The notes: generated from the letters alone by a model not told the origin. A DNA stretch of 64,000 nucleotides from a virus (IMGVR_UViG_3300044445_000018:1-64000); one strand, 5' to 3'; shown: positions 3,174 through 23,030, numbered from the stretch's first letter. A program made the numbers and translations.

Positions 3174-4079
3174 TTACTTGCCCTTGATCTTCTGAAGGTC
3201 GGGCAGGCCGCTGGTGATCTCGATCCCGAGACCCATGATCATGGCGCCCACGATCTTGCGAGCGACGTCGATGGTCGGCGCTTGGACATGCACAGACGCG
3301 TAACCCTTGCTGCCTTTGGGTTCGAGGCCGAGGGCGGCGAGGTTCTTGATGTGCTCCATGAACTTGGGGCCCTCGACGCGAATGGACAGGCTGGCGCCGT
3401 TGTAGCGAGCCGACATGCGGAGGTCGTCGCTGACGGCCACGACATAGTAGCGGCTGCCGCCTGACGTGCCCTGGGTGGGCTGGTAGAGCTTGGTGGCGTC
3501 GCGGAGCTTGATGGGCTCTGCGGTGGTCAGTTCCGACAGCGGGAACTCCCCAGCTTTGTCCACGGGCTGGCCGACAGAGACGGCGGCGGGGGAGGTCTTG
3601 ATGGTCTTGGCGGCGCCTGCCTTGAGCAGGGCGAGGGTGCCGTTCATGGTGGAAAAGTCCTCTGTTTCGATGATGAGCATGATGACTTGAACGACGTCGC
3701 TACAGACTTGCGTCTTCACAAGTTCGGAGGCGAGGCCGTTCTTGATATCTTGGATGGTCGCGTAGTTGATGGGGAGAGTGTGGATCGTGTAGCTCTCGCC
3801 GTCGAAGAACGTGGTCCCGCTGGTTGTGTGCGGGAAATACTCGAAGCGCAGACCCGAAGCCCCGGAGATGCACTTCACTTTCTTAGCGAGTAGTTGCTGG
3901 ATCAGGTCGGCAGGGACCCCGAGTTGCTTGAGCAGGCTGGGCTTCGGCTTATAGCCGGGTTTGGCGGCGGGTGCCTCACCCTTGATCTTGATGTTGACGG
4001 GCATTGGCTTGCTCTCGATTGGCTGGAAGAACGGGTGATTGTCGCTGTACGCGACACAGGTCTGTTCTGCCTTACCCAT
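3174..4079 (-). CDS. hypothetical protein (about 301 aa; start uncertain)
   Basis: The ORF is open to 4169 (TTG). ATG 4079 follows GGAGTGGAC, and GC3 rises only downstream of it. Alternative ATG at 4136. Confidence 0.5.
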   Translation of the reverse strand: MGKAEQTCVAYSDNHPFFQPIESKPMPVNIKIKGEAPAAKPGYKPKPSLLKQLGVPADLIQQLLAKKVKCISGASGLRFEYFPHTTSGTTFFDGESYTIHTLPINYATIQDIKNGLASELVKTQVCSDVVQVIMLIIETEDFSTMNGTLALLKAGAAKTIKTSPAAVSVGQPVDKAGEFPLSELTTAEPIKLRDATKLYQPTQGTSGGSRYYVVAVSDDLRMSARYNGASLSIRVEGPKFMEHIKNLAALGLEPKGSKGYASVHVQAPTIDVARKIVGAMIMGLGIEITSGLPDLQKIKGK

Positions 4080-4185: not shown

Positions 4186-5010
4186 TCAGCGGGTCGGCCC
4201 GGCGAAGATGCTGCCTTCTGTCGTGAGCGGAGTGTAGACCTCGGGGCCCTTCGCGCGGGGCTTGCTGACTGGGCTGCTCTGGCGGTAACTGCCTTCCTTG
4301 GAGCCCGCGACCTTGGTGACGCCGAAGTGCTCGTGGAGGAAGTTGATCTGCCGGCTGCTCTCGACGGCCTTCTTGCAGTAGTTGGTGCGGACATACGTGA
4401 TGGCGTCAGGCTCCCCGAACTCGGACACGAGGGCTGCGAGGAAGGTGCCGGTGCGGCCATGACCGCCGATGCAGCCGCAGTGGACTTTGAGCCCCTTGTC
4501 CAGTTGCTCGCGGGTCCACTTGATCAGCTTCTTGAACTCGGCTGCGTCGCTGGGCGCGTCCATGTCGGTGATCTTGAACAGGAGTTCGGCACCCTTCTTC
4601 CAGGGCCAGTGCTTCTGTGTGAAGCGCATGCCGCTGTCGAAGCCGATGTACACGTCTGCGTCTTTCACGGACGGGGAGCAGCAGGAGCCGCCGAAAATCT
4701 GAAGGTCGCTGTTGGGGATCGCGAGCGCGGGGTGCGTCTCGTAACAGCGGAGGCTGGTAGTGCTGACCGACGACGACTTATGGCTACCCCACCGGCTGTC
4801 GCTGTCGAGGAAGTCACGGACGCTTGACCCGCCCTGGTTAGGACTGGTGCTGCCGAACTTCTTGGCCTCGGTCTCCTTGCTGAACAGGCGGTCGGTGAAG
4901 CCCTCGCTCACGTCCCCGCCGTAGGTGGCGGTCTTGGGGTAGCTCACGCTGCCACCGCGAATGGTGGCGCGGTCGCCGTGGATGGTGTCATTGAGATTTT
5001 TGCGAGCCAT
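4186..5010 (-). CDS. Cys-based (CX5R) dual-specificity/tyrosine phosphatase-fold protein
   Basis: P-loop HCGCIGGHGRTG, then YVRTNYCKKAVESSRQINFL (KAP/Cdc14-like arrangement). SD GGAGGG. Paralogue of 6203..6802. Confidence 0.65.
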   Translation of the reverse strand: MARKNLNDTIHGDRATIRGGSVSYPKTATYGGDVSEGFTDRLFSKETEAKKFGSTSPNQGGSSVRDFLDSDSRWGSHKSSSVSTTSLRCYETHPALAIPNSDLQIFGGSCCSPSVKDADVYIGFDSGMRFTQKHWPWKKGAELLFKITDMDAPSDAAEFKKLIKWTREQLDKGLKVHCGCIGGHGRTGTFLAALVSEFGEPDAITYVRTNYCKKAVESSRQINFLHEHFGVTKVAGSKEGSYRQSSPVSKPRAKGPEVYTPLTTEGSIFAGPTR

Positions 5011-5034
5011 GATAGTGCCCTCCGTGGCTGATGG

Positions 5035-6066
5035 TTACGCTGCGCGCAGGATTTTCTTGACGTGGAAGCCGGGGTAGATTTCGAGATGCGTCTTGGCGAA
5101 CTCTTCGGCTTCTGCCTTGGCTTTGGCCTCGGCAATGGCTTCTTGCTCGGCGGCCTTCTTTGCAGCGGCCTGGGCCGCGATAGCCGCTTGCTTCTCGGCT
5201 TCTGCCGCGTGCTCGGGGACGCCGTATTTCTCGGCCTGCATGAGCTTGTCGCTCGGGTACATCTTGACTGAGCCAAGTTGTTCGACGGTGTACCAGCACA
5301 CATGTCGCGGAAGATCGTACTTGTCGATCAGCCGTTTCATAAGCGATTCGAGTTGATCATCCACGAAGGGGTTGAGCTTCTTGTCGTAAATGACGGCTGT
5401 CGGGATTTGACCGGAACGCTGAATGTCGAGAAGACGGATCAGCTTGTCCCCGTTGTACATCCCGTACAGATGACCCTTGTTGAAGATCGGGCCGTTGTTG
5501 TGGGAGAGGGTCCAGATGGTGTCAAGCATCATCTCGGCACTGAATGTGCCGGTCACGAAGTTGACGAGGCAGTCGGTGACTTTGCCCCACGCCTTGCCGC
5601 CGTAGCCGCCGGGCCACGAGCAGTTGTAGAACATCCACTGCACGCACTTCGTCAGGTTGCCGATGGTCGTATTGGGTGGGGAGTTCTTCAGGTTCTCGTG
5701 GATGCCGTGCTCGCCCTTGCTGTTCTTCATGAAGTTCGCCATGGGAGCGCCAAACTTCGCCTTGATCTCATCGAACTTGTCGCTGAGGTTCTTGCAGTGG
5801 CGGGCCTCGCGAACGCAGATGATCAGCAGATAGTAGAAGGCGCGAGCAGACTTCTCGGTCATCTGTGCGTGGTAGTTCTTCACGAACTCCAGTTCCTCGG
5901 GAGGCAGGGGCTCCAGGGGATCGAAGTTCTGGGAGATCAGCGCCATGCCATGGTTCATGCCGTAGAACCACAGGGCCTCGTTCTCGGGGATCACGTTCTT
6001 GTTGGTCACGCTCTCCGTGTACAGGGCCATGCGGTGGACCACGTCAGCCGCTGGAATGGCCGACAT
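5035..6066 (-). CDS. hypothetical protein with C-terminal Ala/Glu/Lys-rich helix (343 aa)
   Basis: Long ORF. ATG 6066 (MSAIPAADV) chosen because the region upstream reads like off-frame Arg/Pro-rich sequence. No motif recognised. Confidence 0.5.
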   Translation of the reverse strand: MSAIPAADVVHRMALYTESVTNKNVIPENEALWFYGMNHGMALISQNFDPLEPLPPEELEFVKNYHAQMTEKSARAFYYLLIICVREARHCKNLSDKFDEIKAKFGAPMANFMKNSKGEHGIHENLKNSPPNTTIGNLTKCVQWMFYNCSWPGGYGGKAWGKVTDCLVNFVTGTFSAEMMLDTIWTLSHNNGPIFNKGHLYGMYNGDKLIRLLDIQRSGQIPTAVIYDKKLNPFVDDQLESLMKRLIDKYDLPRHVCWYTVEQLGSVKMYPSDKLMQAEKYGVPEHAAEAEKQAAIAAQAAAKKAAEQEAIAEAKAKAEAEEFAKTHLEIYPGFHVKKILRAA

Positions 6067-6171
6067 GTCCCGATGGGTGGTGAACACTCTGGATAGATGG
6101 TGCCGGAGAGTGTCTGTGGGGTCCGTAATGGGCACAGGAAGCCCCCTTTGGGGTTGAGGGGTGGAACGGTG

Positions 6172-6199
6172 AGTATGGCACAAAGGCCCCGTGGTGGAA
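6172..6199 (-). promoter_or_regulatory. possible sigma70-like promoter TTCCAC-16-CATACT
   Basis: Lies in the 136-nt gap upstream of 5035..6066. TGTGCCATACT resembles the early-promoter -10 regions. Confidence 0.35.
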
Positions 6200-6202
6200 G
6201 GT

Positions 6203-6802
6203 TTATTGCGGCTTGAAGTTCGTGTTGAACGAGCGGGCCACGTCGCCGAAGAACCGCCGGGTCTTGTGCCGCCACGCCCGCGCATGGATCAGGTGTGTGA
6301 TGGGCTTGATGTCGAAGTCGTTGACATAGGCCAACTGGTTCTCCGTCTCGACCGCATGGCTGTAGTAGTTCTTGCGGACGAACTGCACGGGGTCGGGGAT
6401 GCCCGCGCACTTGGCCATGATCGCGAGGAACAGGCCGGTGCGACCCATGCCACCCATACAGCCGACATACACGTCACGGCCGCCGAACGCCGCGTCGAAG
6501 GCGGTCAGCACAGCCGAGGCGACGAGGTCGTATTGCTCGGCGGTGGGGACTTGGAAGTCCACGATGGGAACGACGAGATCGGCGTGCTCCGGGACACGCT
6601 CCTGGCGGACACAGACGCCGAAGGTGTGAGGGTTGCCCTTGGGGTAGCCGTCGAAGGGACCCCCCGTGATGTGGACCTTCTGGTAAGCACCTGCGAAGCC
6701 GAATGACAGGGCGAGTACCCCGTTGGCGCGGGGGAAAGTGACCATCTCGGAGGCGATGTCACGCGAGCGGGGGGAACGAGCTTTGGCCATAGGTGCCCTC
6801 AT
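6203..6802 (-). CDS. Cys-based (CX5R) phosphatase-fold protein, paralogue of 4186..5010
   Basis: P-loop VGCMGGMGRTG, then FVRKNYYSHAVETENQLAYV. SD GAGGG. Confidence 0.65.
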   Translation of the reverse strand: MRAPMAKARSPRSRDIASEMVTFPRANGVLALSFGFAGAYQKVHITGGPFDGYPKGNPHTFGVCVRQERVPEHADLVVPIVDFQVPTAEQYDLVASAVLTAFDAAFGGRDVYVGCMGGMGRTGLFLAIMAKCAGIPDPVQFVRKNYYSHAVETENQLAYVNDFDIKPITHLIHARAWRHKTRRFFGDVARSFNTNFKPQ

Positions 6803-6820: not shown

Positions 6821-6848
6821 ATTGTAGGGGATGGACCGGTCTTGTCCA
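6821..6848 (-). promoter_or_regulatory. sigma70-like promoter TGGACA-16-TACAAT
   Basis: Intergenic, upstream of 6203..6802. Confidence 0.5.
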
Positions 6849-7011: not shown

Positions 7012-7031
7012 TGCAGCGCCCTCCCTGGCTT

Positions 7032-7047
7032 GTGCAATTAATGTCAA
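7032..7047. promoter_or_regulatory. junction palindrome GTGCAATTAATGTCAA
   Basis: Contains the TGA stop of 7044..7244. 20 nt upstream of ATG 7011, with the SD in between. Confidence 0.85.
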
Positions 7048-7244
7048 ATCAGGTCGATGGACTTCACCTTGTTCCCATCGACCCGCAGGACGAACTCATC
7101 GAACCGCCGGTTGCCCAACGGATGCGTGAGATTGGCGGCCCGGCGTGCCATCCGTGCGAGACGGGCCGACACGTTGCCGCCGATCCCCAGGCGCTTGGCC
7201 TGGGTGATGGCTTGATCGGAGATGTCGAAGCCGTGGGCTTCCAT
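7044..7244 (-). CDS. hypothetical small protein (66 aa)
   Basis: TGATG overlap with the stop of 7244..7519. Confidence 0.45.
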   Translation of the reverse strand: MEAHGFDISDQAITQAKRLGIGGNVSARLARMARRAANLTHPLGNRRFDEFVLRVDGNKVKSIDLI

Positions 7245-7519
7245 CACACTTTCTCCCGCAGACACTCACCCCGCAGGATGCGGATGCTACGCGGAGCCGA
7301 CAGAGCGACACGGACAGTCGCGGACGGGGGCATGTCCCCGGCCGACACGAACACGTCGTCCATGATCTCGACAGCGTGTTCGTCGGTCACGGTGTGGAGC
7401 TTGCCGGTTCCGTCGTCGCGCAGGACGAACTCCATGTCGGCAACGATCTGTTGCACGACGAAACGGCGCTCACCCGCGACGAAGTCTTCGCCTTCACGCA
7501 GCGTCAATACCAGGGCCAT
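7244..7519 (-). CDS. CsrA/RsmA-like protein with an internal insertion of about 40 aa
   Basis: MALVLTLREGEDFVAGE resembles CsrA MLILTRRVGETLMIGD. TVRVALSAPRSIRILRGE resembles VRIGVNAPKEVSVHREE. ATG 7519 is 6 nt after GGAG. Confidence 0.4.
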   Translation of the reverse strand: MALVLTLREGEDFVAGERRFVVQQIVADMEFVLRDDGTGKLHTVTDEHAVEIMDDVFVSAGDMPPSATVRVALSAPRSIRILRGECLREKV

Positions 7520-7557
7520 GACAGTCTCCACACCGTTTCTTACTTCTATCTATCTGA

Positions 7558-9702
7558 TCAGGTCAGCACCTGAAAGACCGCATAGTCTGCGGGGGCTGCT
7601 TGCGGAACCACCTTGGTTTCGACCCCGGCTGTCTTGAGCATGTCTTGCAGCTTGGCCCACGCCTCGTCGCCGCCGATGATGTTGGCGATGAAGTCCTTGG
7701 TGGGTGCCCCCGCGCCGTTGAGAAGATCGGCCACGGTGGCGGGGGCTGTGCTGACGAATACGCCCCGAGCCGAGAGGGACTTGAGGGTCCCCTTCGAGAG
7801 AAGCGGTGCGTTGAGTATCGTCAGGCCCTTGAGAGCGTCTGTCGTCCCGAGGTTGATCACGTAGTCGATCACTGTCTTGGCGAACTCCCCGAGGGGCTTG
7901 GCCGTCTGGAACGCGTCGGCCAGGACACTGTCCTCGATATAGGCGAACGACTGCGGGTGCGCGAGATCGAGGATGGTGGTGGATGCCTTACCCCACTCTG
8001 CGATGCCGTCGATGGCCACTTCCATCTCGCTTTCGTCGTCCCACCAGTCGGCCGCGTGAAGCATGATGGGGCGGTCGATGTCCTCGGGGAAGCTCATGCT
8101 CTCCGCGTACCCCGTGATGGACTGAGCCCAGTGTCGCACAGTGTTGAGTTCGACACTGTCGGATGCGTCGATGATCGGCACGTTGCTCTCGGCCCACACA
8201 CGGCCGGTGGAGCCGCAGATGGTGAGCTTCGTGATCTTGGACTTCTGCATGTCGTGGATGTCGAGGCCGGTGCAGCCGACGACACACGGCTTGTCCATCG
8301 CTCTAGCCACGACAGCCGCGTGGCTGGTGGCGCCGCCGGTTGCAGTGAGGATGCCCTGGGCCTTGTTCATGCCTGCGATGTCGTCGGGGTCCGTCTCGTG
8401 GGTGACGAGGATCACAGGGTCCTTGGCAGACACCGCGTCGGCACTGGAGTAGACGGGACGGCCGACAGCCACGCCGGGACAGGCGGGGAGGCCGACAGCA
8501 TCTGGTGTGCCCTTGTACTTGGGGTCGATGGTGGGGCGCCGCATCAGCTTGAACTGAGCACGGGTGAGGCGCTTGATCGCGTCCTGGGGCACGATCTTGC
8601 CTTGCGTCACGAGGTCGATGGCGATCTTGAACGCGGCGAAGGCACTGCGCTTACCCACGCGGGACTGGAGGATGTAGAGCACACCGTCTTGCACGGTGAA
8701 CTCGATATCGACCATGTCGTTGTAGTGAGCCTCCAGATCACCGCAGACGACCGCGATCTTGTTGGCGATCACAGGCCACGGCGCAGGCATCTCCTGCATC
8801 TTCGTGATGTTGAGGGGGGTGCGGATGCCGGCCACAACGTCCTCACCCTGGGCGTTGGGTAGAAACTCGCCCATGATCACGTTTTCCCCGGTGGAGGGGT
8901 CGCGGGTGAAGAGGACGCCCGTGCCGGACTGGTCGTTGAGATTGCCGAAGACCATGGCCTGGACGTTACAGGCGGTGCCCATCGCCGGATCGATCTTGTT
9001 GATCTTGCGGTACTCGATAGCGCGGTCGTTGCCCCACGAGTTGAAGACGGCGCCGATGGCGGCTTTCAACTGTTCCTCGCGGGTGGCTGGGAACGTGTGA
9101 CCGACTGCCTTGGCGAACGCTTTCTCATACTCCACGACGACAACTTTGAGATCGTTTGCGCCGAGTTGCGTGTCCTCGGTAGCCCCGACGTCTTTCTTGA
9201 CCCGTGCCAACTGAAAGTCGAACACGCCCATGTCGATGTCGTATGCGGTAGAGCCGAGCATCTGAATGAGGCGGCGGTAGCTGTCCCACGCAGCACGCTC
9301 GCCGATGCGCTCGATCCACTCGTTGAGATTGTGGTGAGTGAGGCCGACGTTGAGGATGGTGTCCATCATGCCGGGCATAGACACAGGGGCGCCGGAACGA
9401 ACGGAGACGAGGGGAGCGTACCCCATGGTCTCCGTGAGCCACGCATCATGCTTGAGCACTTCCTGCATGAGCACGCTGACGAACTTGTGTTCTTCGGGAG
9501 ACCCTGCGCCGAACTTTGCGAGGATATCCATGAACTGGTTGCAGATGCGGGTGGTGATGCAGAAGGCCGGGGGCACGTTGAGCCCCATGTCAACCATGTC
9601 GTGGAGGCCCGCACCCTTACCCCCGAGGATGGCCTTCTTAGGGGCCTCCTCAGTGTAAGGAGTGCAGGACCCCTTCGCGATACGATAGAAGTTGGTATCC
9701 AC
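7558..9702 (-). CDS. PPDK-like dikinase: ATP-grasp + phosphohistidine swivel domains with a non-PPDK C-terminal ~200 aa
   Basis: Collinear with pyruvate phosphate dikinase through LGGKGAGL, VSVRSGAPVSMPGMMDTILNVGL, NAQGEDVVAGIRTP and TATGGATSHAAVVARAMDKPCVVG. No PEP/pyruvate TIM-barrel motifs follow. GTG start 5 nt after GGAGG. Confidence 0.8.
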   Translation of the reverse strand: MDTNFYRIAKGSCTPYTEEAPKKAILGGKGAGLHDMVDMGLNVPPAFCITTRICNQFMDILAKFGAGSPEEHKFVSVLMQEVLKHDAWLTETMGYAPLVSVRSGAPVSMPGMMDTILNVGLTHHNLNEWIERIGERAAWDSYRRLIQMLGSTAYDIDMGVFDFQLARVKKDVGATEDTQLGANDLKVVVVEYEKAFAKAVGHTFPATREEQLKAAIGAVFNSWGNDRAIEYRKINKIDPAMGTACNVQAMVFGNLNDQSGTGVLFTRDPSTGENVIMGEFLPNAQGEDVVAGIRTPLNITKMQEMPAPWPVIANKIAVVCGDLEAHYNDMVDIEFTVQDGVLYILQSRVGKRSAFAAFKIAIDLVTQGKIVPQDAIKRLTRAQFKLMRRPTIDPKYKGTPDAVGLPACPGVAVGRPVYSSADAVSAKDPVILVTHETDPDDIAGMNKAQGILTATGGATSHAAVVARAMDKPCVVGCTGLDIHDMQKSKITKLTICGSTGRVWAESNVPIIDASDSVELNTVRHWAQSITGYAESMSFPEDIDRPIMLHAADWWDDESEMEVAIDGIAEWGKASTTILDLAHPQSFAYIEDSVLADAFQTAKPLGEFAKTVIDYVINLGTTDALKGLTILNAPLLSKGTLKSLSARGVFVSTAPATVADLLNGAGAPTKDFIANIIGGDEAWAKLQDMLKTAGVETKVVPQAAPADYAVFQVLT

Positions 9703-9768: not shown

Positions 9769-9894
9769 TTATTTCTTCTGGAAGTCTACCGGGCGCCGAG
9801 ACTTCGGGTCCTGGCTGAGCACCTTGGCGCCCTTCGATTGCTTCGGCTTCGCCGCCGTCTTCGGGGTCGGTTTCGGAAGGACGTGCGTCGTCAT
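9769..9894 (-). CDS. small Lys/Pro-rich protein (41 aa), not in ORF track
   Basis: MTTHVLPKPTPKTAAKPKQSKGAKVLSQDPKSRRPVDFQKK. TGATG overlap with the stop of 9894..10412. Strongly GC-rich third positions. Confidence 0.45.
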   Translation of the reverse strand: MTTHVLPKPTPKTAAKPKQSKGAKVLSQDPKSRRPVDFQKK

Positions 9895-10412
9895 CACGCG
9901 ATAGCCTTTTTCTGGTCGAGCCGCCGGGTGTAGCAGCCCTGGAACTGCGCACGAACGAGCATGTTCTGTGCAGTTGATTTCACTTTGGCGCGGTCGTGCT
10001 TGTAGTCAAGGAGGTCTCCCATGTCCTCGATCTCCGTGTTCACGAGCATGGCCACGAGCACCGCCATGTTGTCCACGTCGGCGAGGTAGCCTTCCTCCAC
10101 GAGCACGAGGATGAACTGCGCACAGCAGTAGAAGCCCTGGACAGGATCACTGGCGCCAACGTCGCGTAAGATCGAGACGGCGAGCCCGTCGATCCGCTTG
10201 GCCACGAGTACCATCCGTTCTTGCGGCAGGGTCGTAATAACAGCCTCGACGGCCTTGTTCAGCTTGTCCACGATATCGGGCCGAAATTGGTAGCCCTTGG
10301 TGTGAGCTTGATCGTGCATCAGGATCATCATGTGCGCGGGCAGGCACTGCTCCGTCACTGACAAGTCCGCCAGGGCGATCTGCTCCTTGTGGGTGAAATT
10401 CACGACGGTCAT
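9894..10412 (-). CDS. hypothetical protein (172 aa)
   Basis: ATG 10412 (MTVVNFTHKEQ). High GC3 from this point onward. Confidence 0.55.
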   Translation of the reverse strand: MTVVNFTHKEQIALADLSVTEQCLPAHMMILMHDQAHTKGYQFRPDIVDKLNKAVEAVITTLPQERMVLVAKRIDGLAVSILRDVGASDPVQGFYCCAQFILVLVEEGYLADVDNMAVLVAMLVNTEIEDMGDLLDYKHDRAKVKSTAQNMLVRAQFQGCYTRRLDQKKAIA

Positions 10413-10575
10413 AGCTTCCAAACTCCTGGGCGATCTCTTCTACGGCGGGGGTGTCGTAGGGGAGCGAGACCGTGTCCCCCTCGACGTAGTGCGAAACTCC
10501 GAGGTCGTCTAGTAAGTCCGCAAATTCGGACGCTGCACCATCGGAACCGTACCTATAGGTGATCCTTCGGTCCAT
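10147..10575 (-). CDS. questionable ORF: only the first ~54 codons (10413..10575) look coding
   Basis: Acidic N-terminal part MDRRITYRYGSDGAASEFADLLDDLGVSHYVEGDTVSLPYDTPAVEEIAQEF. The ORF then runs out of frame through 9894..10412 with low GC3 and no stop until 10147. Confidence 0.25.
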   Translation of the reverse strand: MDRRITYRYGSDGAASEFADLLDDLGVSHYVEGDTVSLPYDTPAVEEIAQEFGSYDRREFHPQGADRPGGLVSDGAVPARAHDDPDARSSSHQGLPISARYRGQAEQGRRGCYYDPAARTDGTRGQADRRARRLDLTRRWRQ

Positions 10576-14522: not shown

Positions 14523-15170
14523 TCACTTCTCCTTGGTCAGGGCCGCAAGGTGGTCTTTGTCCTCCGTCCAGATACCCGGTGCGCTCTCGAAGCGGGCACC
14601 GTGGGCGCCCTTGGTCTGATGCTGGTACTTCCCGTCGTAGGGGTTCTCCGCATCGGCGTCGAGCCAAGTGAAGATGAACTGGCAGACGGCGTCACCCTTC
14701 TTGTAGCTGACGACCTTCTCGGAGAAGTTCACCAACTCCAGCGTGGCGTTGCCGTGGAAGCCGGGGTCGAAGAAGGTATTGAACGCCGAAACGAAGACGC
14801 GAGCATAAGTGCTCTTGTCACAGACCGCTCCTCCGACGTCTGCTGGGAGATGGAAGTCTTCGACGGTGTACGCCAGCGCGTAGTGAGGCGGTTCGTTGCG
14901 GAGTTCGGACTGTAGGGCGGGTAGATCACGCAGCGCCCTCCACAGTCCTCGGATACTGGCGAAGTCCTGTCTCAGCAGCCAGTCTTTCCAGACGATGCCG
15001 GGGTGTCTCCCGAGAGTGAGGTCGTGATCGATGCTCGCATCGTAGCTCGCGTGACTGAGCCCCTTGCTGGCCCCGTTCACTCTGATCTTCTCGTTGAGGA
15101 ACGGCGAGATCAGCGGCACTTCCGTGTTCGTGCAGAGGTTGCGGATGCTCTGCCCTGTCAACTGCGTCAC
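14523..15170 (-). CDS. dcd: dCTP deaminase/dUTPase-fold protein
   Basis: FDPGFHGNATLELVN signature and SYDASIDHDLTLG. GTG start. Confidence 0.75.
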   Translation of the reverse strand: MTQLTGQSIRNLCTNTEVPLISPFLNEKIRVNGASKGLSHASYDASIDHDLTLGRHPGIVWKDWLLRQDFASIRGLWRALRDLPALQSELRNEPPHYALAYTVEDFHLPADVGGAVCDKSTYARVFVSAFNTFFDPGFHGNATLELVNFSEKVVSYKKGDAVCQFIFTWLDADAENPYDGKYQHQTKGAHGARFESAPGIWTEDKDHLAALTKEK

Positions 15171-15363
15171 GGGTCTGTTCCTCGAAGCTGTGAATATGCG
15201 TGTGGGGGAATGTCTTCAGGATGCCGTCTTCCGTATCGACGGCGAACAGCATGTAGCACCAGGGATGGTACTCGTTCTCCGCGTACTTGCTGTATTGCGG
15301 GTTGACGAGCCGCTTGCGCCGCTCGCCCCTGTGGTTCGTGTAGTCGATCAGCGCATACGTCAT
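14926..15363 (-). CDS. small ORF whose first ~63 codons (15171..15363) look coding
   Basis: MTYALIDYTNHRGERRKRLVNPQYSKYAENEYHPWCYMLFAVDTEDGILKTFPHTHIHSF. The frame then continues 245 nt into the dcd-like gene with low GC3. Confidence 0.35.
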   Translation of the reverse strand: MTYALIDYTNHRGERRKRLVNPQYSKYAENEYHPWCYMLFAVDTEDGILKTFPHTHIHSFEEQTRDAVDRAEHPQPLHEHGSAADLAVPQREDQSERGQQGAQSRELRCEHRSRPHSRETPRHRLERLAAETGLRQYPRTVEGAA

Positions 15364-15373
15364 CCCAAGTACC

Positions 15374-16834
15374 TCAGTTCTTGCTCAGGACACCCGGCGT
15401 ATTCGTGTCCTTCCAGCCAGCCATGTTCAGGTACACCTTGAGCAGGTGCGCGTTGGCTCGCTTGCCCACGGGGATGCCCTTGAACTGGGCAGCGTTCGTC
15501 ACGAATACACCCTGCTCCCGTGCGAAAGCCAAGGCGTCTATCGAGGTCTGTCCAGTCGCCTCGATCTTTGCCACGAGGTCTTTGTACATCTGCCCGCCGT
15601 CCGTCTGCTCCAGCCTCTTGCGGAGGTACACTTCCTGATCGTCCACGAGCTTCTTGACCACGTCCAGCGTCGGATTGTTGGCCGCGCTCTCCACGAGGTC
15701 TCGCCATGTCGTACTCTCCCACTGCTTGAACTTGGCCATCTGGCCTTTGTAGTCGGTCGCGAACTCCCGCACGATGGCATACGCCTCGACGTAGTCGTTG
15801 GCGCGGAAGGGGTAGTCCTTGCCGAGGAAGTCGGCCCACGGGTGCTTGGGCACGATCACGGGCACACCGAACAGCAAGGGCTCGTAGGTGGACAGTGAGA
15901 AGTCCTCCACTGTCGAGAGGTTAACCACGACGTGCGCTTTGCCCTTCAGGAGGGCGTGGAACTGATCGCGGTTGTTGTGCTGCACGTCCATGAAGTCGAT
16001 CTCGCCCACGTTGGACGAACCGCTGGAGGCCGAGTTCGTGGAGACGATGAAGTTCATCTGCTTCTTCGTCGTGACGTGCGAAATGGCGTAGTGGTCCCGG
16101 AAGAGTTCAGCCACTTCTTTGAAGTTGCGGGTCCCGGTCATCCGGCCTGCGAAAACGACGTTCAGTCCTTTCCCAGGCATCTTGATGGTATTCGTAGCGA
16201 GCCTGGAGAGCTTCACGGGGACGCACTCGTGTATGGTCTTCTGCAAATCGAGTGCCTTTGACGGCGTCAGCCACTGCTTGGCGATACGCATCACTTCGCG
16301 TTTCGACCAGAGGTTGTTGATGATCACCGCTCCAGCCGATTGGTAGGCTGCCAAGCTGGTCAAGTCCATGTTGCCTGAGGAGGCCCATGAGACCGTGTCT
16401 CGAAAAGAGAACACTGGCATCTCTTCCAGGCCGATAAACAGCCGTTGGGTCCCTTTGGGGTAATTCCCGACTTCCCGCCCGGCCACATTCCGCATGAAGG
16501 GCAGTTGCGAGATACGCGACGTGAGCACGACATCGAAGTCCCATACCGGTGTATCCCCTGGTGCGAGAATGTGGATGAGCGGGTCAGACAGCTTGAACTG
16601 TTCCTCGACACGGTCGGCTTGCAGGTACGGATACGGCACGAGATGCACGCAGTCCGGTCGGCGGTTGAGGAACTTCCATTCCTCTTCGTTGTTCTTCGAC
16701 GCCTCGGGGTACATCAGGTAGAAGAAGACGTCGTCGCTCTTGGCCCGCAAGCCTTCGATGATCTCCCACGCGAGGTAAGAGGTCGAGCACTTGTGCGCCT
16801 TGCCCGTGTAGATCGGGTCGATCAGGATTTTCAC
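15374..16834 (-). CDS. GT-B fold glycosyltransferase
   Basis: EDFSLSTYEPLLFGVPVIV (E-x7-E region). GTG 16834 after GAAAGG. The track N-terminus upstream reads as off-frame. Confidence 0.6.
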   Translation of the reverse strand: MKILIDPIYTGKAHKCSTSYLAWEIIEGLRAKSDDVFFYLMYPEASKNNEEEWKFLNRRPDCVHLVPYPYLQADRVEEQFKLSDPLIHILAPGDTPVWDFDVVLTSRISQLPFMRNVAGREVGNYPKGTQRLFIGLEEMPVFSFRDTVSWASSGNMDLTSLAAYQSAGAVIINNLWSKREVMRIAKQWLTPSKALDLQKTIHECVPVKLSRLATNTIKMPGKGLNVVFAGRMTGTRNFKEVAELFRDHYAISHVTTKKQMNFIVSTNSASSGSSNVGEIDFMDVQHNNRDQFHALLKGKAHVVVNLSTVEDFSLSTYEPLLFGVPVIVPKHPWADFLGKDYPFRANDYVEAYAIVREFATDYKGQMAKFKQWESTTWRDLVESAANNPTLDVVKKLVDDQEVYLRKRLEQTDGGQMYKDLVAKIEATGQTSIDALAFAREQGVFVTNAAQFKGIPVGKRANAHLLKVYLNMAGWKDTNTPGVLSKN

Positions 16835-16991
16835 GCGCTTGCCTTTCGGTAGACGCGCCAACCCCCATCGGTCTTGCGCGCAGTCTTGCGGTAGTCGATC
16901 CCCAGATGCGTGATGGCCTGGGTCAGTGTTCCGGGGTACTCGCGGATCGAAACGTACTGATCCGGCTCTCCGGGTGCTATAAGACAGCACA

Positions 16992-17486
16992 TCACGCGAG
17001 GGAAGAACATTGAGCCTCCTGCGTCAAGAAGCGTTTGCGGATACGAGAGCCGGGCACGTTCTTGCTGTTCTGGGACTTCGTGGCCCAGCGCAGGTTGCGA
17101 CGGCGACAGTCCAGGGTGTTCCCGTTGCGATGATCCCCGATGCGGTAAGGTCTCCGAGGGCCTTTCCACCGCGTGAGGATTTCACAGTGCAGGAACAGGT
17201 TCCCGTAGCGAGGACGTCCCGAAGGCAAGAACCCGTCGATCTGAACAGACCGGCGGGCATAGATGCCATCAGGGCGCTCTAGGGCGTTCATCCAGGGCAG
17301 GTACTTGCCTGACCCGTACGTGTGGCACCAGAGGAAGTCTTTGGCCCACACGTAGTCTTGGTAGTCGAGCAGGACGTTGAGGTCCCACCGGTTCGACAGG
17401 CAGATCGCGAAGGTCGCGTCCGGTGCCGGTTCCGTGTCCCACGTCCTGGGATCGAATGGATCAGCCAGTAGCAAGTCTTCGAACAT
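16992..17486 (-). CDS. HNH homing-type endonuclease
   Basis: GDHRNGNTLDCRRRNLRWATKSQNSKN. Free-standing, between the glycosyltransferase and methyltransferase-like genes. Confidence 0.75.
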   Translation of the reverse strand: MFEDLLLADPFDPRTWDTEPAPDATFAICLSNRWDLNVLLDYQDYVWAKDFLWCHTYGSGKYLPWMNALERPDGIYARRSVQIDGFLPSGRPRYGNLFLHCEILTRWKGPRRPYRIGDHRNGNTLDCRRRNLRWATKSQNSKNVPGSRIRKRFLTQEAQCSSLA

Positions 17487-17498
17487 GAGCCGCCCCGA

Positions 17499-17514
17499 GT
17501 GACGTTAATTGCAC
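17499..17514. promoter_or_regulatory. junction palindrome GTGACGTTAATTGCAC
   Basis: Abuts the TGA stop at 17515-17517. 12 nt upstream of the HNH ATG. Confidence 0.85.
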
Positions 17515-18198
17515 TCAGATCGGCTCGACTTGCAGCGCGAGACGGAAGGCGTACGGTTCGACCCCTTGCACGTCGGAGTAGCAGGGCACAGACAGAACCG
17601 ATGTCACCGCGAGGTTTTGGTCTGCCAGAACCTCACGATAGGCGGCGATAGCGTCTTCCTCGCTGATGATGCCGTGGGAGCCCACGTCGTAGAACGATGC
17701 TCGCGCTGCCATCCATTTCTTGTAGTTGAACTCGGCGTACTCGTCGTAGCCGTGGGACCCGACCTCCTCCTTGTTGTAGGGCCGCTTGTTCACGTACAGA
17801 ACGATCAACGCCTTGGGCTTGAGCATCCCCTTGATGTGCCGCAGCACGTCGAAGTGCTCGATATGAGCGATCCCGAACGCGTCGTTGTGAATGCCCTGGG
17901 GCGTGTCGATCACGACCATGTCGTACTTGTGGGTGCAGCCACCCATGCTGGTGTACGAACAGCCGATGATGATCTCACGCGGATTGAACTTCTCCAGGGC
18001 CGGACGGTGCTCGGCGTTCAATTCCCACAGGTCGAGGTTGTTGATCTCGGTGTAGTAACGGCTGACGGTGAGCGCCCCATCACGGGCGAACATGTCGAGT
18101 GCATCGGGACCGATCTCGTAGAAGCCGAACAAGGCGTCGAAGAACAGCTTCGCACTGAGCTTGTCCGCGCCGGTCACGTCACAGGTACGAATTTTCAC
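17515..18198 (-). CDS. Rossmann-fold methyltransferase-like protein (RsmD/DNA-MTase-like)
   Basis: Motif I-like LDMFARDGALT. Motif IV position reads VVIDTPQG rather than DPPY. Confidence 0.4.
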   Translation of the reverse strand: MKIRTCDVTGADKLSAKLFFDALFGFYEIGPDALDMFARDGALTVSRYYTEINNLDLWELNAEHRPALEKFNPREIIIGCSYTSMGGCTHKYDMVVIDTPQGIHNDAFGIAHIEHFDVLRHIKGMLKPKALIVLYVNKRPYNKEEVGSHGYDEYAEFNYKKWMAARASFYDVGSHGIISEEDAIAAYREVLADQNLAVTSVLSVPCYSDVQGVEPYAFRLALQVEPI

Positions 18199-18213
18199 GG
18201 GGGCTGTCCTCGA

Positions 18214-19260
18214 TTACGAGCGAAGGTGACGAAGGATTTCGTCGGTGGTTTGGCCTGCGTACATGCCCTCGTCAAGAGGCAAGCAAGCAAACATGGACGC
18301 GACAAGCTCCGCGCCGATGTATCTGCGCTCAGTCGTCAGGTTAAGCGCAGAGATCAACTGGTCGGAAGTCTGGTAGACATGCCCCGAGAACTTTTTGATC
18401 CCGAGACAATCTGCTTCGAGGCGATCCACCGGGTACTTGTACCAGTTGCGGTGGTGGGCTCTGGCGAAGCGGTTGATGGGCTGGATGATCTTGCCGAGTT
18501 GGTGAGCCGCTTCCTCCCGCTTCTCCAGAAGCTCGTTGAGGCGCTTCATCTGGAGGTAGCCGACTGCCGCCGTCCATTCATCCATGCGGAAATTGAAGCC
18601 TCCGCTGCGGTGGCGAAGCACGCCCTCCTTGTCCCGGTACTTCCCGTAGTTGCGGAACTCGCGGCAAGCCTGAAGGAAGTCGGGGTCGCGGCTCACGATG
18701 ATGCCCCCCTCACCCGCAGGCACGGCCTTGGTCGGGTAGAGGGAGAACACCGCACCCTTAGACATGCGGCCGGGTCCGAAGATGCTGTTGACCCTGACGC
18801 CGAGGACGTGGGCCGCATCCTCGAACAGGGGAATGCTGCGCGCCATACAATACGCTGCGATCTGCTCGTAGTGTCGAGAGATTTTGCCCCCAACGTGAGT
18901 GAGGATCACGGCCGAGGGCTGCACAGGTTGGACTTCGAGGTCGTTGACGCACATGGACAGGTCGTCCGGTGTACAGTCAATGGGGATGACGCTGTAGCCC
19001 GCTTCGATAGGCATGGCCCCGGTGGCGAAGAACGTGTTGACGGGGACCGCGACAGGTTTCCCCACCGCGACCCCCGACATACGCAACATGGTGTAGAGGC
19101 CGGTGCCTGCCGAGTTGACAGCGCAGGCGGGAATGCCGCCCCACGCCTCGACGGCCTCTTCGAGAAGCCTGACGTACTTGCCTTCTGTCAGGTGCCCCGA
19201 CAGCCTGATCTCGTCCCAGGCTGCATGGAGGTCTTTCGGATCGACACCGACCACGCTCAT
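18214..19260 (-). CDS. DegT/DnrJ/EryC1-type PLP-dependent sugar aminotransferase
   Basis: AVNSAGTGLY and FSLYPTKAVPAGEGGII (Lys region). ATG 19260 overlaps the upstream stop (TAATG). Confidence 0.8.
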   Translation of the reverse strand: MSVVGVDPKDLHAAWDEIRLSGHLTEGKYVRLLEEAVEAWGGIPACAVNSAGTGLYTMLRMSGVAVGKPVAVPVNTFFATGAMPIEAGYSVIPIDCTPDDLSMCVNDLEVQPVQPSAVILTHVGGKISRHYEQIAAYCMARSIPLFEDAAHVLGVRVNSIFGPGRMSKGAVFSLYPTKAVPAGEGGIIVSRDPDFLQACREFRNYGKYRDKEGVLRHRSGGFNFRMDEWTAAVGYLQMKRLNELLEKREEAAHQLGKIIQPINRFARAHHRNWYKYPVDRLEADCLGIKKFSGHVYQTSDQLISALNLTTERRYIGAELVASMFACLPLDEGMYAGQTTDEILRHLRS

Positions 19261-19442
19261 TACGCCACCTTCGTCAGCGAGTAGCCTTCGAGGTAGTCCG
19301 AGTGGGCCACCCCGCGCTCGTCGGTCCACACGACCTCGAACTTGTCGATGCCTTCGGGATCGCCGACGATGGTCATGATCGGGGCGGTCTCGTCGTCATC
19401 GTTGCGGCGAACGTGATCGCCGGGCTTGAACTTGTCGGCCAT
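19260..19442 (-). CDS. small protein (60 aa), YodC/DUF2158-like
   Basis: KFKPGDHVRR...PIMTIVG pattern. Confidence 0.4.
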   Translation of the reverse strand: MADKFKPGDHVRRNDDDETAPIMTIVGDPEGIDKFEVVWTDERGVAHSDYLEGYSLTKVA

Positions 19443-19444
19443 GG

Positions 19445-20395
19445 TCAGATGTCCTTTCCGTAGAAGCGCAAAGCGTTTGCGCGGTGGTCGGGGGAAAGCT
19501 GGTCGATGTACTCGACCGTTTTACGAATACTGTCCTCGAACGGGACGACGGGCAGGATGCCTTCGCCTTCCCAATAGGACATATCCGCAACCAGATTGAC
19601 GCCGGGCTTCTCGCCTTCGCGCATGGGCACGTTGACGATCTTGGACCCTTTGTCCTTGTAGCGGTACTTCTCGTTGACGATACGCAGGATGGTGTGCGCC
19701 GCGTCCTGGCACGAGATGGCCTTGCCCGAGCCCAGGTCCACGACATCGGCACGACGGCCGAGATTGCGACACGCATGGACGGTCAGGGCGGACAGGTCTT
19801 CCACGTCGATGGGGTCGATGGTCTGCGATCCGTCGCCGTAGACTTCGAGGTCGAAGCCGTACATGGCGAACAGGATCATCATGGGCAGGAACTTCCGCAC
19901 CGGGTACAGGTGCTGGTACGGGCCGACCGCGTTGAGCCAGCGGACGGTGGCCACTTCCATGTCGTACTTCTGCTGGTAGAGGCGGCCGACGAGTTCACCC
20001 GCGTGCTTGGTCAGCGTGTACGAGTTCTCGTCGTAGCCGTCGAAGTGAGGCTTGGCGACGTTGTAGACCCGCTTGACCCCGGCGAGACGGCACGCGTCCA
20101 TGACGTTGTTGGCGCCGACCACGTTGGTCTCACAGGCGAGGCTGGAGATCGCGATCAGTTCCGACGTGCCGAGGATGCCCGCCAGATGGTAGACCTCGTC
20201 CACGCCCTTGAGCGGGGCCAGCAGGGAGGACAGGTTGCGGATGTCCGCGTAGTGGAAGCTGGCCTTCGGCGGCATCCGAACCTGGGGCACCGCGACGTCG
20301 ATCAGGACAAGCTCGGTCTCGGGTTCGTACTTAGCGAACCACAGCATCAGGTTCGTACCGATGAAGCCTGACGATCCGGTGATGGCAACGCGCAT
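19445..20395 (-). CDS. NAD-dependent sugar epimerase/dehydratase (SDR)
   Basis: ITGSSGFIGTNL (GxxGxxG) and YTLTK (YxxxK). Confidence 0.8.
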   Translation of the reverse strand: MRVAITGSSGFIGTNLMLWFAKYEPETELVLIDVAVPQVRMPPKASFHYADIRNLSSLLAPLKGVDEVYHLAGILGTSELIAISSLACETNVVGANNVMDACRLAGVKRVYNVAKPHFDGYDENSYTLTKHAGELVGRLYQQKYDMEVATVRWLNAVGPYQHLYPVRKFLPMMILFAMYGFDLEVYGDGSQTIDPIDVEDLSALTVHACRNLGRRADVVDLGSGKAISCQDAAHTILRIVNEKYRYKDKGSKIVNVPMREGEKPGVNLVADMSYWEGEGILPVVPFEDSIRKTVEYIDQLSPDHRANALRFYGKDI

Positions 20396-20399
20396 GGGT

Positions 20400-21041
20400 C
20401 TATGCTTCCTTCAGATATTTGACATGATAGGCTTCGGCATACTCGGCTCCGCACTGACTGCCCCACACGCGAGCTTGTGCAATTAAGTTCACTGGTGAGC
20501 GGGGTCCTTCGGTGCGGCTCTCGGTGGTGTAGCAGGCCATCGCCTCGATCTTCTTGTCCATGACCTCCTGTGTCATGGGCAGGTAGAAAGAGGGTTGCCG
20601 CACAATACCGTCCAGAGCGAAGAACTCAAGGACGCGGTCGATCTTGCCGAGATTGATCGGACGCAGGGCAATACCACAGACGTGGTTCAGATGTCGATGG
20701 TCTTGATTAAGATCATCACCCGCCGGGATGATGACTTCATCCGGCTCGAAGTTCTTCAGAGCCCATTCGATCTTGCGCAGCAGATCGTAATAACCGACTT
20801 TTCCTGGCTCTCCTTCGGTAGAGGGGCGTCCTGCCGAGACCTCTACGAAATCGAGTAGCTTCTTGGCTTTGAGGAAGTCGGGATATTCCTGCTGCCAGCC
20901 ATCCTTCTGGCCGTGGAAGTACGCCCTGGTAAAGACGACGAGGACGAGAACGTCGATGCCTTCACGACGACGGGCCTGAATGAGGCCCGCGCATGAGATC
21001 GTCTCGTCGTCTAGGTGGGGGGCGATGATCAGCGTTCTCAT
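20400..21041 (-). CDS. PIG-L/LmbE family N-acetylglucosaminyl deacetylase
   Basis: IIAPHLDDETISCAG motif. ATG 21041 in ATGA overlap, 9 nt after GGAGGA. Confidence 0.75.
   Translation of the reverse strand: MRTLIIAPHLDDETISCAGLIQARRREGIDVLVLVVFTRAYFHGQKDGWQQEYPDFLKAKKLLDFVEVSAGRPSTEGEPGKVGYYDLLRKIEWALKNFEPDEVIIPAGDDLNQDHRHLNHVCGIALRPINLGKIDRVLEFFALDGIVRQPSFYLPMTQEVMDKKIEAMACYTTESRTEGPRSPVNLIAQARVWGSQCGAEYAEAYHVKYLKEA
20477..20492. promoter_or_regulatory. palindrome GTGCAATTAAGTTCAC (intragenic, near 3' end)
   Basis: Inside the deacetylase CDS (codes VNLIAQ), 82 nt upstream of the epimerase ATG. Confidence 0.8.
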
Positions 21042-21277
21042 GGTTTCCATTCCTCCATCTGTGTCAGCAAGGGTTCAGCCATTTTGAGGTAGTGCTGCTG
21101 TTCGAGCACAGTGGCCTGTACCCAGGCTTTGTTGCGCTCGTGCATGAGAAGAACACCCGCGACGTAGACTAATCGCCGGTTGCGCAGACGCTTTTTCTGA
21201 CCCTCTTTGCGGTTGCGCGGGACGAGAGGGCCGTTGAGGAGTTCGGCTCTGGTCGCGAGCTTCACTTCGCGGCCCAT
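21038..21277 (-). CDS. hypothetical basic protein (79 aa)
   Basis: Co-directional ORF that overlaps both neighbours by a few nt. Confidence 0.4.
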   Translation of the reverse strand: MGREVKLATRAELLNGPLVPRNRKEGQKKRLRNRRLVYVAGVLLMHERNKAWVQATVLEQQHYLKMAEPLLTQMEEWKP

Positions 21278-22966: not shown

Positions 22967-22991
22967 TGCTGCCCTCCTTGGTTGCCTTTTG

Positions 22992-23019
22992 AGTATAACC
23001 CCTAGGGACGTGGTGTGAA
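22992..23019 (-). promoter_or_regulatory. sigma70-like promoter TTCACA-16-TATACT
   Basis: The -35 overlaps the palindrome at 23015..23030. Confidence 0.5.
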
Positions 23020-23030
23020 GTTAATTTCAC
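23015..23030. promoter_or_regulatory. junction palindrome GTGAAGTTAATTTCAC
   Basis: Contains the TGA stop of 23027..23500. Confidence 0.85.

Follow-up and report, generated by a model that had tools for sequence, protein, structure and literature searches.

A phage cassette of a PPDK-like dikinase, a proposed acceptor-domain protein and two Cys-based phosphatases, with a counterpart in bacterial operons

The 64,000-nucleotide viral stretch IMGVR_UViG_3300044445_000018:1-64000 (the window, to whose full length all positions refer) carries on its minus strand a PPDK-like dikinase gene and, downstream of it, genes for two CX5R phosphatases, PTP-B and PTP-A, on either side of a middle gene, MID, followed by ORF331. 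Here, we report the domain architecture of these proteins, their conserved catalytic motifs, the split and fused arrangements of dikinase and MID, and the linkage of four components in two unrelated genomic settings, phages and bacterial operons. We propose, from sequence comparison, that the phage dikinase and MID represent the split form of a three-part dikinase that is fused in bacteria. We see an even chance that MID binds an acceptor other than pyruvate, that the split dikinase phosphorylates this acceptor, and that the phosphatases hydrolyse the product. The principal genes, in order of transcription, are as follows.

7558..9702, minus strand: dikinase, 714 amino acids (aa); PPDK-type ATP-grasp domain, swivel phospho-His domain and a lineage-specific C-terminal domain of ~200 aa
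6203..6802, minus strand: PTP-B, CX5R dual-specificity-type phosphatase, 199 aa from 6802
5035..6135, minus strand: MID (middle gene), 366 aa from GTG 6135
4186..5010, minus strand: PTP-A, CX5R phosphatase, 274 aa
3174..4169, minus strand: ORF331 (phrog_25950, function unknown)

The original prediction, made from the window alone, had placed two paralogous phosphatase genes around the middle gene and all three downstream of the dikinase in the same direction. This layout stands: the dikinase (9702-7558) is followed by three small open reading frames (ORFs) and then by PTP-B, and the two phosphatases carry the P-loop motifs and match each other by BLASTP at E 1e-15.

A MID-like domain is fused to dikinases in bacteria

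When bacterial genomes were searched with the MID profile, eight loci of the phage type were recovered, along with eight loci that have a single ORF of 756-943 aa. The latter belong to six Candidatus Obscuribacterales metagenome-assembled genomes (one locus lying on a 6.69 Mb chromosome) and two uncultured Gammaproteobacteria, and their ORFs combine PPDK_N, the swivel-His domain (PEP-utilizers) and, C-terminally, a MID-like domain. At least 19 more fusion ORFs (721-965 aa) were found in a metagenome scan, bringing the total to at least 27. Their occurrence on no fewer than 27 independent contigs makes assembly artefacts unlikely. In hhalign, phage MID matched the fusion C-termini with a probability of 98.2% (E 3e-14), and the motifs E..RH, YGGK.WG and D..L.HN.G..F.K align between the two. 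The position of the MID-like domain after the swivel-His domain in bacteria suggests that MID occupies the acceptor-domain place of a PPDK-type enzyme, the phage version being split. This homology to the C-terminal domain of fused dikinases escaped the original prediction, which treated the middle gene merely as an unknown.

No terminase (TerL) or polymerase (PolA) gene was found within 8-10 kb of the fusion loci, whose neighbours are of a housekeeping kind: a TPR protein, a HAD hydrolase and an M3 peptidase; PNPase and an NYN RNase; or FolD and SHMT. In most loci a CX5R phosphatase of ~190 aa directly follows the fusion gene, with P-loops such as CFASQGRT, CAASHGRT, CQGSHGRT and CHAGHGRT. These phosphatases score about equally against the PTP-A and PTP-B profiles, which points to a duplication into A and B on the phage side. 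The third gene, after fusion and phosphatase, is in most bacterial and metagenomic loci a homologue of F3, the C-terminal domain of ORF331; further neighbours conserved across the fusion lineages were not found. The suggestion that dikinase and phosphatases work together is strongly supported by this recurrence outside phages beside a dikinase-MID fusion.

The cassette is a core module of a large siphovirus family

In Rhodobacter, Rhizobium, Stenotrophomonas and ~30 Vibrio phages the gene order is TerL, ORF175, dikinase, CsrA-like gene, PTP-B, MID, PTP-A, ORF331-like gene, PolA and portal, and it is kept while the cassette proteins share only 25-65% identity. The order is already annotated in Rhizobium phage RHph_TM16 and Rhodobacter phage RcZahn, and tblastn located the cassette in RHph_Y1_11, in Stenotrophomonas phages DLP5, DLP3 and Summit, and in ~30 Vibrio siphoviruses (among them SIO-2, VHS1, V-YDF132 and J26). 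Co-occurrence with the dikinase was without exception: all 39 complete phage genomes with MID also encode the dikinase, 2-4 kb upstream, and so do 77/77 metagenomic loci with enough upstream flank, a count that leaves out eight loci without dikinase that end <2.3 kb upstream of MID. An IMG/VR scan contributed 80 further cassette loci, and local tblastn recovered the order dikinase, PTP-B, MID, PTP-A, ORF331-like gene and PolA in every locus with enough flank. Some members miss one phosphatase (SIO-2 is without PTP-A, loci L073 and L075 are without PTP-B), and none misses both. The cassette always lies between terminase and DNA polymerase. Siphoviruses of 80-100 kb, which form a large family, have it as a core module, so that the cassette is not rare in phages, for which the original prediction had called either proposed role unusual.

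The dikinase departs from PPDK in its C-terminal region

Pfam searches of the dikinase returned PPDK_N (2.9e-44) and PEP-utilizers (2.5e-24) only. Residues 22-528, comprising the ATP-grasp and swivel-His domains, strongly resemble true PPDKs and include the swivel phospho-His motif GGATSHAAVVAR with the catalytic TSH; the match to maize PPDK (1vbg in the PDB; E 6.6e-121) covers residues 22-488 only. The PEP/pyruvate TIM barrel PF02896 gave no Pfam match in the dikinase at E up to 0.1. With TIGR01828, for which the cutoff is 843 bits, the protein reached 539.5 bits and aligned only to positions 13-526 of the 865 in the profile; with PRK05878 it reached 411 bits (cutoff 456). Its C-terminal ~200 aa amount to about half the size of the PEP/pyruvate domain, are 25-37% conserved among relatives and had no match in a PDB profile search; in alignment A3 of this domain V5, P6, D76 and D88 are nearly invariant and no position is fully so. 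We also considered this domain as a part of MID or of the fusion proteins, and rejected the idea, as they are unrelated by comparison. The phage enzyme thus has in common with PPDK (EC 2.7.9.1) and PEP synthase the ATP-grasp nucleotide domain, the swivel phospho-His domain and the TSH motif, but differs in that the TIM barrel is replaced by the lineage-specific domain of ~200 aa and by a separate all-alpha MID, fused at that position in bacterial relatives.

Since PF02896 is missing and the score stays below the PPDK equivalog cutoff, the published label "PPDK auxiliary metabolic gene" is not supported by the sequence. A 2025 paper on Vibrio phage J26 modelled residues 524-691 as a four-stranded "TIM barrel" and docked PEP into it (PMC12038007), an interpretation that we do not think the sequence evidence bears out. 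Were the label right, the gene would encode a genuine PPDK, the phosphatases would be unrelated host-signalling tools and MID would be irrelevant. Besides the J26 model, ~45% identity to real PPDKs over the first ~500 residues speaks for this, but homologues have MID instead of the C-terminal region, that region is small and poorly conserved, and the dikinase is strictly linked to MID and the phosphatases across phages and bacteria. Together with the profile results, these observations make a genuine PPDK very improbable.

The dikinase also gave weak NCBIfam matches to rifampin phosphotransferase (RPH) and to the prodigiosin ligases PigC/RedH. RPH, PigC/RedH and glucan water dikinase (GWD) consist of PPDK-type modules with swapped acceptor domains. 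The phage system resembles RPH and PigC/RedH in that ATP-grasp and swivel-His domains appear recruited to a new acceptor via a swapped third domain. The acceptor domain of RPH, however, sits between its ATP-grasp and His domains, unlike MID in the fusions, and MID had no Foldseek match to any PDB entry, RPH included, at E <0.3. Neither the RPH nor the PigC/RedH system includes a phosphatase, in contrast to the phage cassette. Enzyme I of the phosphotransferase system (PTS) has a swivel-His domain homologous to that of the dikinase (matches at 2e-5), but uses PEP and not ATP. Transfer from Enzyme I to HPr is a precedent for a protein acceptor, and PDRP/PSRP are a precedent for a regulator encoded beside a dikinase; Pfam and NCBIfam scans of cassette proteins detected no HPr-like or DUF299 protein.

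The latter precedent raises the question of whether the phosphatases act on the dikinase itself, by removing an inhibitory phosphate from the Thr beside the catalytic His or by discharging the phospho-His, and leave the product untouched. In PPDK and PEP synthase, PDRP/PSRP act in this way on the Thr that adjoins the catalytic His, and the PEP synthase regulators are encoded beside PEP synthase in bacteria. The T-S-H motif is retained in ~72/74 phage dikinases, and regulation would explain the universal linkage without a futile cycle. On the other hand, this Thr is conserved in PPDKs whether or not they are regulated and therefore does not discriminate, it is replaced by Gly in fusion L102, which still has the phosphatase, and two diverged paralogues with different P-loop residues are hard to fit to a single regulatory site. 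We regard such regulation as quite unlikely.

MID is predicted to adopt a new all-alpha fold

The MID gene most likely starts at GTG 6135, preceded 7-8 nt upstream by AAGGGGG, which gives 366 aa and not the 343 aa first assumed; the 23 additional N-terminal residues (PITDPTDTL...) fit the N-termini of homologues (MALTDPxDTL). The AEK-rich tail noted in the original prediction was borne out, and is modelled as a single long helix followed by a small beta-hairpin. An AlphaFold2 (AF2) model built with 45 homologues is confidently all-alpha (pLDDT 93.2, pTM 0.82). In Foldseek searches the model had no counterpart in the PDB (best E 0.33, TM 0.14), and the viral models of BFVD yielded MID orthologues and nothing else. 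The MID profile had no match among PDB sequences. MID corresponds to phrog_20946, of unknown function, and has no family in Pfam, NCBIfam or PADLOC; a weak match to DUF6905 in 3/45 members was treated as noise. Judging from the model, MID is a new all-alpha fold. Its invariant polar residues cluster in three motifs, REARH, GGYGGKAWG and SAEMMLDTxWTLSHNNGPIFNKG. When the profile was run against 1.84 billion representative proteins, 1788 clusters at 50% identity were retrieved at E up to 1e-3; with the limit set at 1e-30 the number was 616.

Two public records label MID a "putative membrane protein", yet it models as a soluble helical protein. A standalone MID-like protein of 271 aa with the motifs FGGKKWG and IEHNGGMIFDK is encoded at 7014-7829 of a Candidatus Vogelbacteria contig (L105). 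The RH is missing from its E..RH motif, and PNPase is encoded close by, whereas its surroundings contain neither a dikinase nor a phosphatase gene.

The phosphatases resemble archaeal and atypical dual-specificity enzymes

PTP-A contains HCGCIGGHGRTG and YVRTNYCKKAVESSRQ, and PTP-B contains VGCMGGMGRTG and FVRKNYYSHAVETENQ. The two share 34% identity over 90 residues; this alignment is confined to the catalytic half, and the N-terminal halves, which the original prediction described as different, cannot be aligned. Both were recovered in Pfam by PTP-SAK/Tc-R-P, barely above the gathering score (~28 bits against a cutoff of 27), PTP-A with ~28 bits for each of PTP-SAK and Tc-R-P and PTP-B with 28.7 bits (1.6e-6) for PTP-SAK, so that the profile assignment passed narrowly. 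The P-loops read C180-IGGHG-R186-T in PTP-A and C-MGGMG-R-T in PTP-B. The catalytic Cys and Arg are retained as CX5R[ST] in 82/82 PTP-B and ~79/83 PTP-A orthologues, and 70/83 of the latter have exactly CIGGHGRT. Across the 37 PTP-A homologues of alignment A2, D149, C180, R186, T187, E217 and Q221 are invariant; in PTP-B orthologues the general-acid D of DF.vP and the AvET..Q motif are at least 90% conserved (D, E, T, Q). The segments ITDMDAP and IVDFQVP of the two proteins align with the general-acid loop PIPDFTAP of Tk-PTP.

The AF2 model of PTP-A has a core at residues 88-235 with pLDDT >90, between disordered ends (the first 85 and last ~40 residues) that hold the short conserved motifs RKNLNDxIHGDR (N-terminal) and GSIW (C-terminal). 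Foldseek with this model gave 188 PDB matches at E up to 1e-3, and all 50 of the matches listed are PTPs or dual-specificity phosphatases (DSPs), in agreement with the predicted PTP/DSP fold. Tk-PTP ranks first (4.6e-7), and ShufPTP, VHZ, KAP, SDP-1, SsoPTP, VH1, PTPMT1, PRL and Cdc14 are also among the neighbours. The proposed likeness to KAP and Cdc14 is thus upheld, the closest relatives being archaeal Tk-PTP, ShufPTP and SsoPTP, and VHZ. The closest PDB sequences to PTP-B are ShufPTP and Tk-PTP, and its paralogy with PTP-A and the Pfam match indicate that it probably has the PTP fold as well. The small archaeal and atypical enzymes Tk-PTP (5z59), SsoPTP (2i6i), ShufPTP (9e9l), VHZ/DUSP23 and KAP are the best matches in sequence and structure, and have in common with the phage proteins the general-acid loop I/V-D-F/M-x-x-P, the P-loop C-x-G-G-x-G-R-T/S-G and the AVE(T/S)xxQ loop. 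Unlike them, PTP-A has its disordered extensions (~85 aa N-terminal, 40 aa C-terminal), PTP-B is without a His preceding the Cys, and both are encoded within a dikinase cassette. Judged by these motifs and profiles, both proteins are confirmed as DSP-like members of the Cys-based PTP superfamily with intact catalytic residues, and look catalytically competent as hydrolases.

A role of the PTP Cys as phospho-carrier in a PTS-like relay was considered and is unlikely, in view of the conserved general acid, the likewise conserved Gln loop for hydrolysis and the direct fusion of MID to the dikinase. PHROG 17568 and several GenBank phage records (DLP5, DLP3, sm030, 29Fa.3, CAU_VPP01) label the phosphatases "thymidylate synthase", which looks like a propagated misannotation.

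The original prediction had offered activity on RNA 5' ends as one possible role. In this case the phosphatases would be RNA 5'-polyphosphatases or end-healing phosphatases and dikinase and MID would phosphorylate polynucleotide ends, which would reshape host mRNA decay or repair cleaved RNA. PTP-fold RNA 5'-triphosphatases (baculovirus BVP, PIR1, the metazoan capping enzyme) have a P-loop of the HCTHGxNRT type and are not known to have a general-acid Asp. BVP, an RNA 5'-phosphatase, appears only at Foldseek rank 35 and PIR1 at rank 39-40, the human capping-enzyme phosphatase also falling within ranks 35-40; the cassette includes an RNA-binding CsrA-like gene, and PNPase adjoins the operon in L101, together with the NYN RNase, as well as lying near the standalone MID-like gene in L105. 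Yet both phage phosphatases keep the general-acid Asp, their P-loops differ from HCTHGxNRT, the PNPase adjacency is limited to these two loci and the module is without a ligase. A role in RNA-end metabolism therefore appears highly unlikely.

The other suggestion was phosphorylation of the plant-starch type. No process other than plant starch turnover, in which GWD/PWD act with SEX4/LSF2, is known to pair a dikinase with DSP-type phosphatases. In starch turnover, as in the cassette, a His-swivel dikinase is joined by two paralogous DSP-fold phosphatases, which in the GWD/PWD system differ in specificity. By analogy, the phage dikinase might phosphorylate a polysaccharide such as host glycogen, or glycosyl groups such as the sugars of phage DNA or virions, and the DSPs might remove position-specific phosphates. 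Sugar-related genes fit this idea: at a distance of 6-11 kb upstream, the window encodes a GT4-like glycosyltransferase together with aminosugar enzymes (PIG-L, epimerase/dehydratase, DegT), RcZahn and RHph_TM16 have genes resembling this aminosugar cluster, V-YDF132 has a glycosyltransferase, and one bacterial lineage has an esterase and a PIG-L deacetylase ahead of the dikinase-MID fusion. The CsrA-like gene may be counted in as well, as CsrA controls glycogen metabolism.

Against this, GWD-type enzymes have CBM45 starch-binding domains and a nucleotide-binding domain C-terminal to the His domain, whereas the phage dikinase has the order ATP-grasp then His, as in PPDK, and Pfam detected no carbohydrate-binding module (CBM20, CBM45 or CBM48). 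Glucan phosphatases have the signature C-(hydrophilic)-A-G-(aliphatic)-G-R, which neither P-loop (CIGGHGR, CMGGMGR) matches, and SEX4, LSF2 and laforin are not among the top 50 structural matches of PTP-A. The orphan fold of MID, which resembles no carbohydrate-active fold, also sets the cassette apart from the GWD/SEX4 system, the PIG-L link is confined to a single lineage, and the sugar genes are absent from most bacterial operons. Glucan phosphorylation of the starch type is not supported by the features checked, and glycan phosphorylation of this general design is quite unlikely too.

F3 is a fourth conserved component

The F3 domain comprises the C-terminal ~135 aa of ORF331 (about 3177-3581) and is marked by the motif GT[SE]G..Y.V.A....R....R[VI]E. 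It was found downstream of PTP-A in 72/85 phage loci, and hhalign matched it to the N-terminal domain of the third gene of the bacterial operons (93.2%, E 3e-7). F3 is a fourth conserved cassette component and a partner of the enzymes, which it may serve as adaptor, reader or substrate. The F3 profile had no match among PDB sequences, and no known family was found for it. A reading of the repeats in bacterial F3 proteins as HeH/SAP DNA-binding motifs was dropped, since Pfam gives it no support.

F3 also opens an alternative that resembles partner switching, in which dikinase and MID would phosphorylate F3 or a host protein, the phosphatases would act as erasers and F3 would be the output. The phosphatases are nearest in sequence and structure to the protein phosphatases Tk-PTP, SsoPTP, VHZ and KAP, the conserved motifs in the disordered tails of PTP-A suggest protein docking, and F3 itself is small, matches no family or PDB entry, always travels with the enzymes and has a conserved Ser/Thr-rich loop, with Tyr and Arg invariant in the phage family. 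In the PTS, moreover, the homologous swivel-His domain of Enzyme I phosphorylates a protein. However, no ATP-grasp dikinase is known that phosphorylates a protein, the F3 Tyr is replaced by Phe in one bacterial homologue, the many invariant polar residues of MID resemble a small-substrate active site, and loci L119 and L122 have the PIG-L deacetylase and esterase in place of F3 and phosphatase. We consider this alternative unlikely.

Proposed mechanism and candidate acceptors

By homology to PPDK, the ATP-grasp domain would load the swivel His within GGATSHAAVVAR with the beta-phosphate of ATP, and the swivel domain would deliver the phospho-His to a second active site. MID would supply this site in trans, where true PPDK has the PEP/pyruvate TIM barrel. 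The tie between MID and dikinase is evident from fusion and co-occurrence, and the conserved polar cluster of MID (E..RH, YGGK.WG, D..T..HN.GP.FNKG) would be in keeping with a catalytic role. MID would then bind a non-pyruvate acceptor, which would become phosphorylated. PTP-A and PTP-B both retain the general-acid Asp, a Thr directly following the Arg, and the water-positioning loop AVE..Q, and may strip the phosphate from the product, either as formed or after further processing. With phosphorylation by dikinase and MID and removal by the phosphatases, the cassette would write and then erase or trim a phosphate mark.

Several points weigh against this proposal. Within phages, linkage is inseparable from common descent, so that independent support comes from the bacterial operons, and six of the fusion loci (L106, L109, L113, L119, L122 and L123) have no detectable phosphatase. 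The C-terminal ~200-aa domain of the phage dikinase, which is absent from the fusions, could be the real acceptor domain, MID then being accessory. A kinase and a phosphatase acting on one group would also amount to a futile cycle unless separated in time or place. In the variant operon of L119 (4880-8729) and L122 (4734-8729), an alpha/beta hydrolase (esterase) and a PIG-L deacetylase precede the fusion, and neither phosphatase nor F3 was detected. This operon hints at a sugar-type acceptor, in a single lineage. PIG-L deacetylase as a general partner was rejected, its occurrence among the bacterial operons being restricted to L119/L122.

As to what the split dikinase might phosphorylate, the hints point in different directions and none is decisive. 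A sugar or aminosugar-bearing glycoconjugate, possibly on phage DNA, is a tentative candidate that takes its cue from the glycosyltransferase and aminosugar genes upstream in the window. We are more doubtful about a nucleic acid or nucleotide, to which the position between terminase and DNA polymerase and the nearby dCTP-deaminase-like gene would point, and equally doubtful about a protein, with F3 itself as the obvious candidate. Some other small molecule seems unlikely. It may be speculated that the module belongs to a route to hypermodified nucleic acid, in which dikinase and MID would carry out the O-phosphorylation of a base or a sugar substituent, either in phage DNA itself or in a deoxynucleotide precursor. 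The activated group would then be substituted or kept, and both phosphatases and F3 would process the intermediate. The remaining steps of the pathway would fall to the neighbouring genes for the DNA polymerase, the dCTP-deaminase-like enzyme, the glycosyltransferase and the aminosugar enzymes. Such chemistry could be likened to the enol phosphate of PPDK, or to activation of a lactam oxygen by CTP synthase or PurA/PurZ, and would explain why DNA of the cassette carrier Stenotrophomonas phage DLP3 resisted all 15 restriction enzymes tested (PMC7326821). We nevertheless judge this hypermodification route improbable.

Literature searches returned only genome descriptions and no functional work, and the four-component system is not described in the searchable literature. 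Dozens of published phage genomes list a PPDK auxiliary metabolic gene, and phosphatases as host-signalling tools or "thymidylate synthase", labels that our results contradict. The genes form one system, the catalytic parts of which are of known kinds, whereas the proposed third catalytic domain would be an uncharacterised fold of ~1800 sequence clusters that has no family model; there is a realistic chance of new chemistry. The fusion proteins offer a testable design, namely dikinase plus MID plus labelled ATP. Should phage DNA or a glycoconjugate prove to be the acceptor, a widespread family of siphoviruses of Vibrio, Stenotrophomonas, Rhizobium and Rhodobacter would possess a new modification chemistry; some phages of this family are under development for therapy. 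If the acceptor were a protein, the enzyme would be the first ATP-grasp dikinase working as a protein kinase.

Neighbouring genes and further observations

All cassette genes are on the minus strand, and the full order of transcription in the window is TerL, ORF175, dikinase, three small ORFs, PTP-B, MID, PTP-A, ORF331, two small ORFs and family-A DNA polymerase. The features around the principal genes are as follows.

12617-10509, minus strand: large terminase (TerL)
9894..10421, minus strand: ORF175, adjoining the dikinase upstream in closer relatives
7244..7531, minus strand: CsrA-like small protein, 95 aa, with an internal insertion; conserved between dikinase and PTP-B in many phage relatives
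7044..7265, minus strand: small ORF, 73 aa
7047-6853, minus strand: third small ORF between dikinase and PTP-B
2519-117, minus strand: family-A DNA polymerase (PolA)
14523-21050, minus strand: aminosugar/glycosylation cluster, just upstream of ParB and terminase, with the six genes that follow
20400-21050, minus strand: PIG-L deacetylase
19445-20395, minus strand: NAD epimerase/dehydratase
18214-19329, minus strand: DegT aminotransferase
16992-17486, minus strand: HNH endonuclease gene, which looks inserted into the aminosugar cluster
15374-16990, minus strand: GT4-conflict-like glycosyltransferase
14523-15170, minus strand: dCTP-deaminase-like gene

ORF175 was found by tblastn at the same position in 24 loci, and a family match for it was sought in Pfam, NCBIfam and PHROG and not found. 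The CsrA-like ORF matches Pfam CsrA at E 5.4e-5 (23.5 bits, under the gathering score) and occurs at the equivalent position in ~50 related phage loci by tblastn; it is not part of the bacterial fusion operons. The equivalent gene of Vibrio phage J26 carries a CsrA annotation (PMC12038007). An equivalent of the 73-aa ORF was located by tblastn in ~40 related phage loci, with no family match in Pfam and PHROG scans. The probable start of PTP-B is ATG 6790, with GAGGG as ribosome-binding site, and the PTP-A start at 5010 has a GGAGG site. The sole sigma-70-like match in a promoter and terminator scan of 16 kb was TGGACA-16-TACAAT at 6821-6848 (minus strand), just upstream of PTP-B; shuffled sequences yield more such matches, so it is not evidence of a promoter.

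A dCTP-deaminase gene as a constant dikinase neighbour holds in V-YDF132, where it is directly upstream, and was undetected in most loci; in the clade of the window, the place of the dCTP-deaminase-like gene is upstream of ParB and TerL. At 22413-23354 (minus strand), the window encodes a protein with a domain similar to the C-terminal one of RapZ (E 3.1e-26), and RcZahn has a "RapZ-like protein" in the equivalent region. In a related prophage on the Hyphomicrobium sp. ghe19 chromosome (L004), a protein with an Acb1 (anti-CBASS) domain is encoded between the portal and protease genes (17731-19344). Finally, the region 26215-32454 (minus strand) of the window encodes an unusual set for a phage, consisting of a DUF1501 protein (26215-27489), a DUF1800 protein (27502-29298), a 788-aa He_PIG Ig-domain protein (29373-31739) and an fn3 protein (31753-32454).

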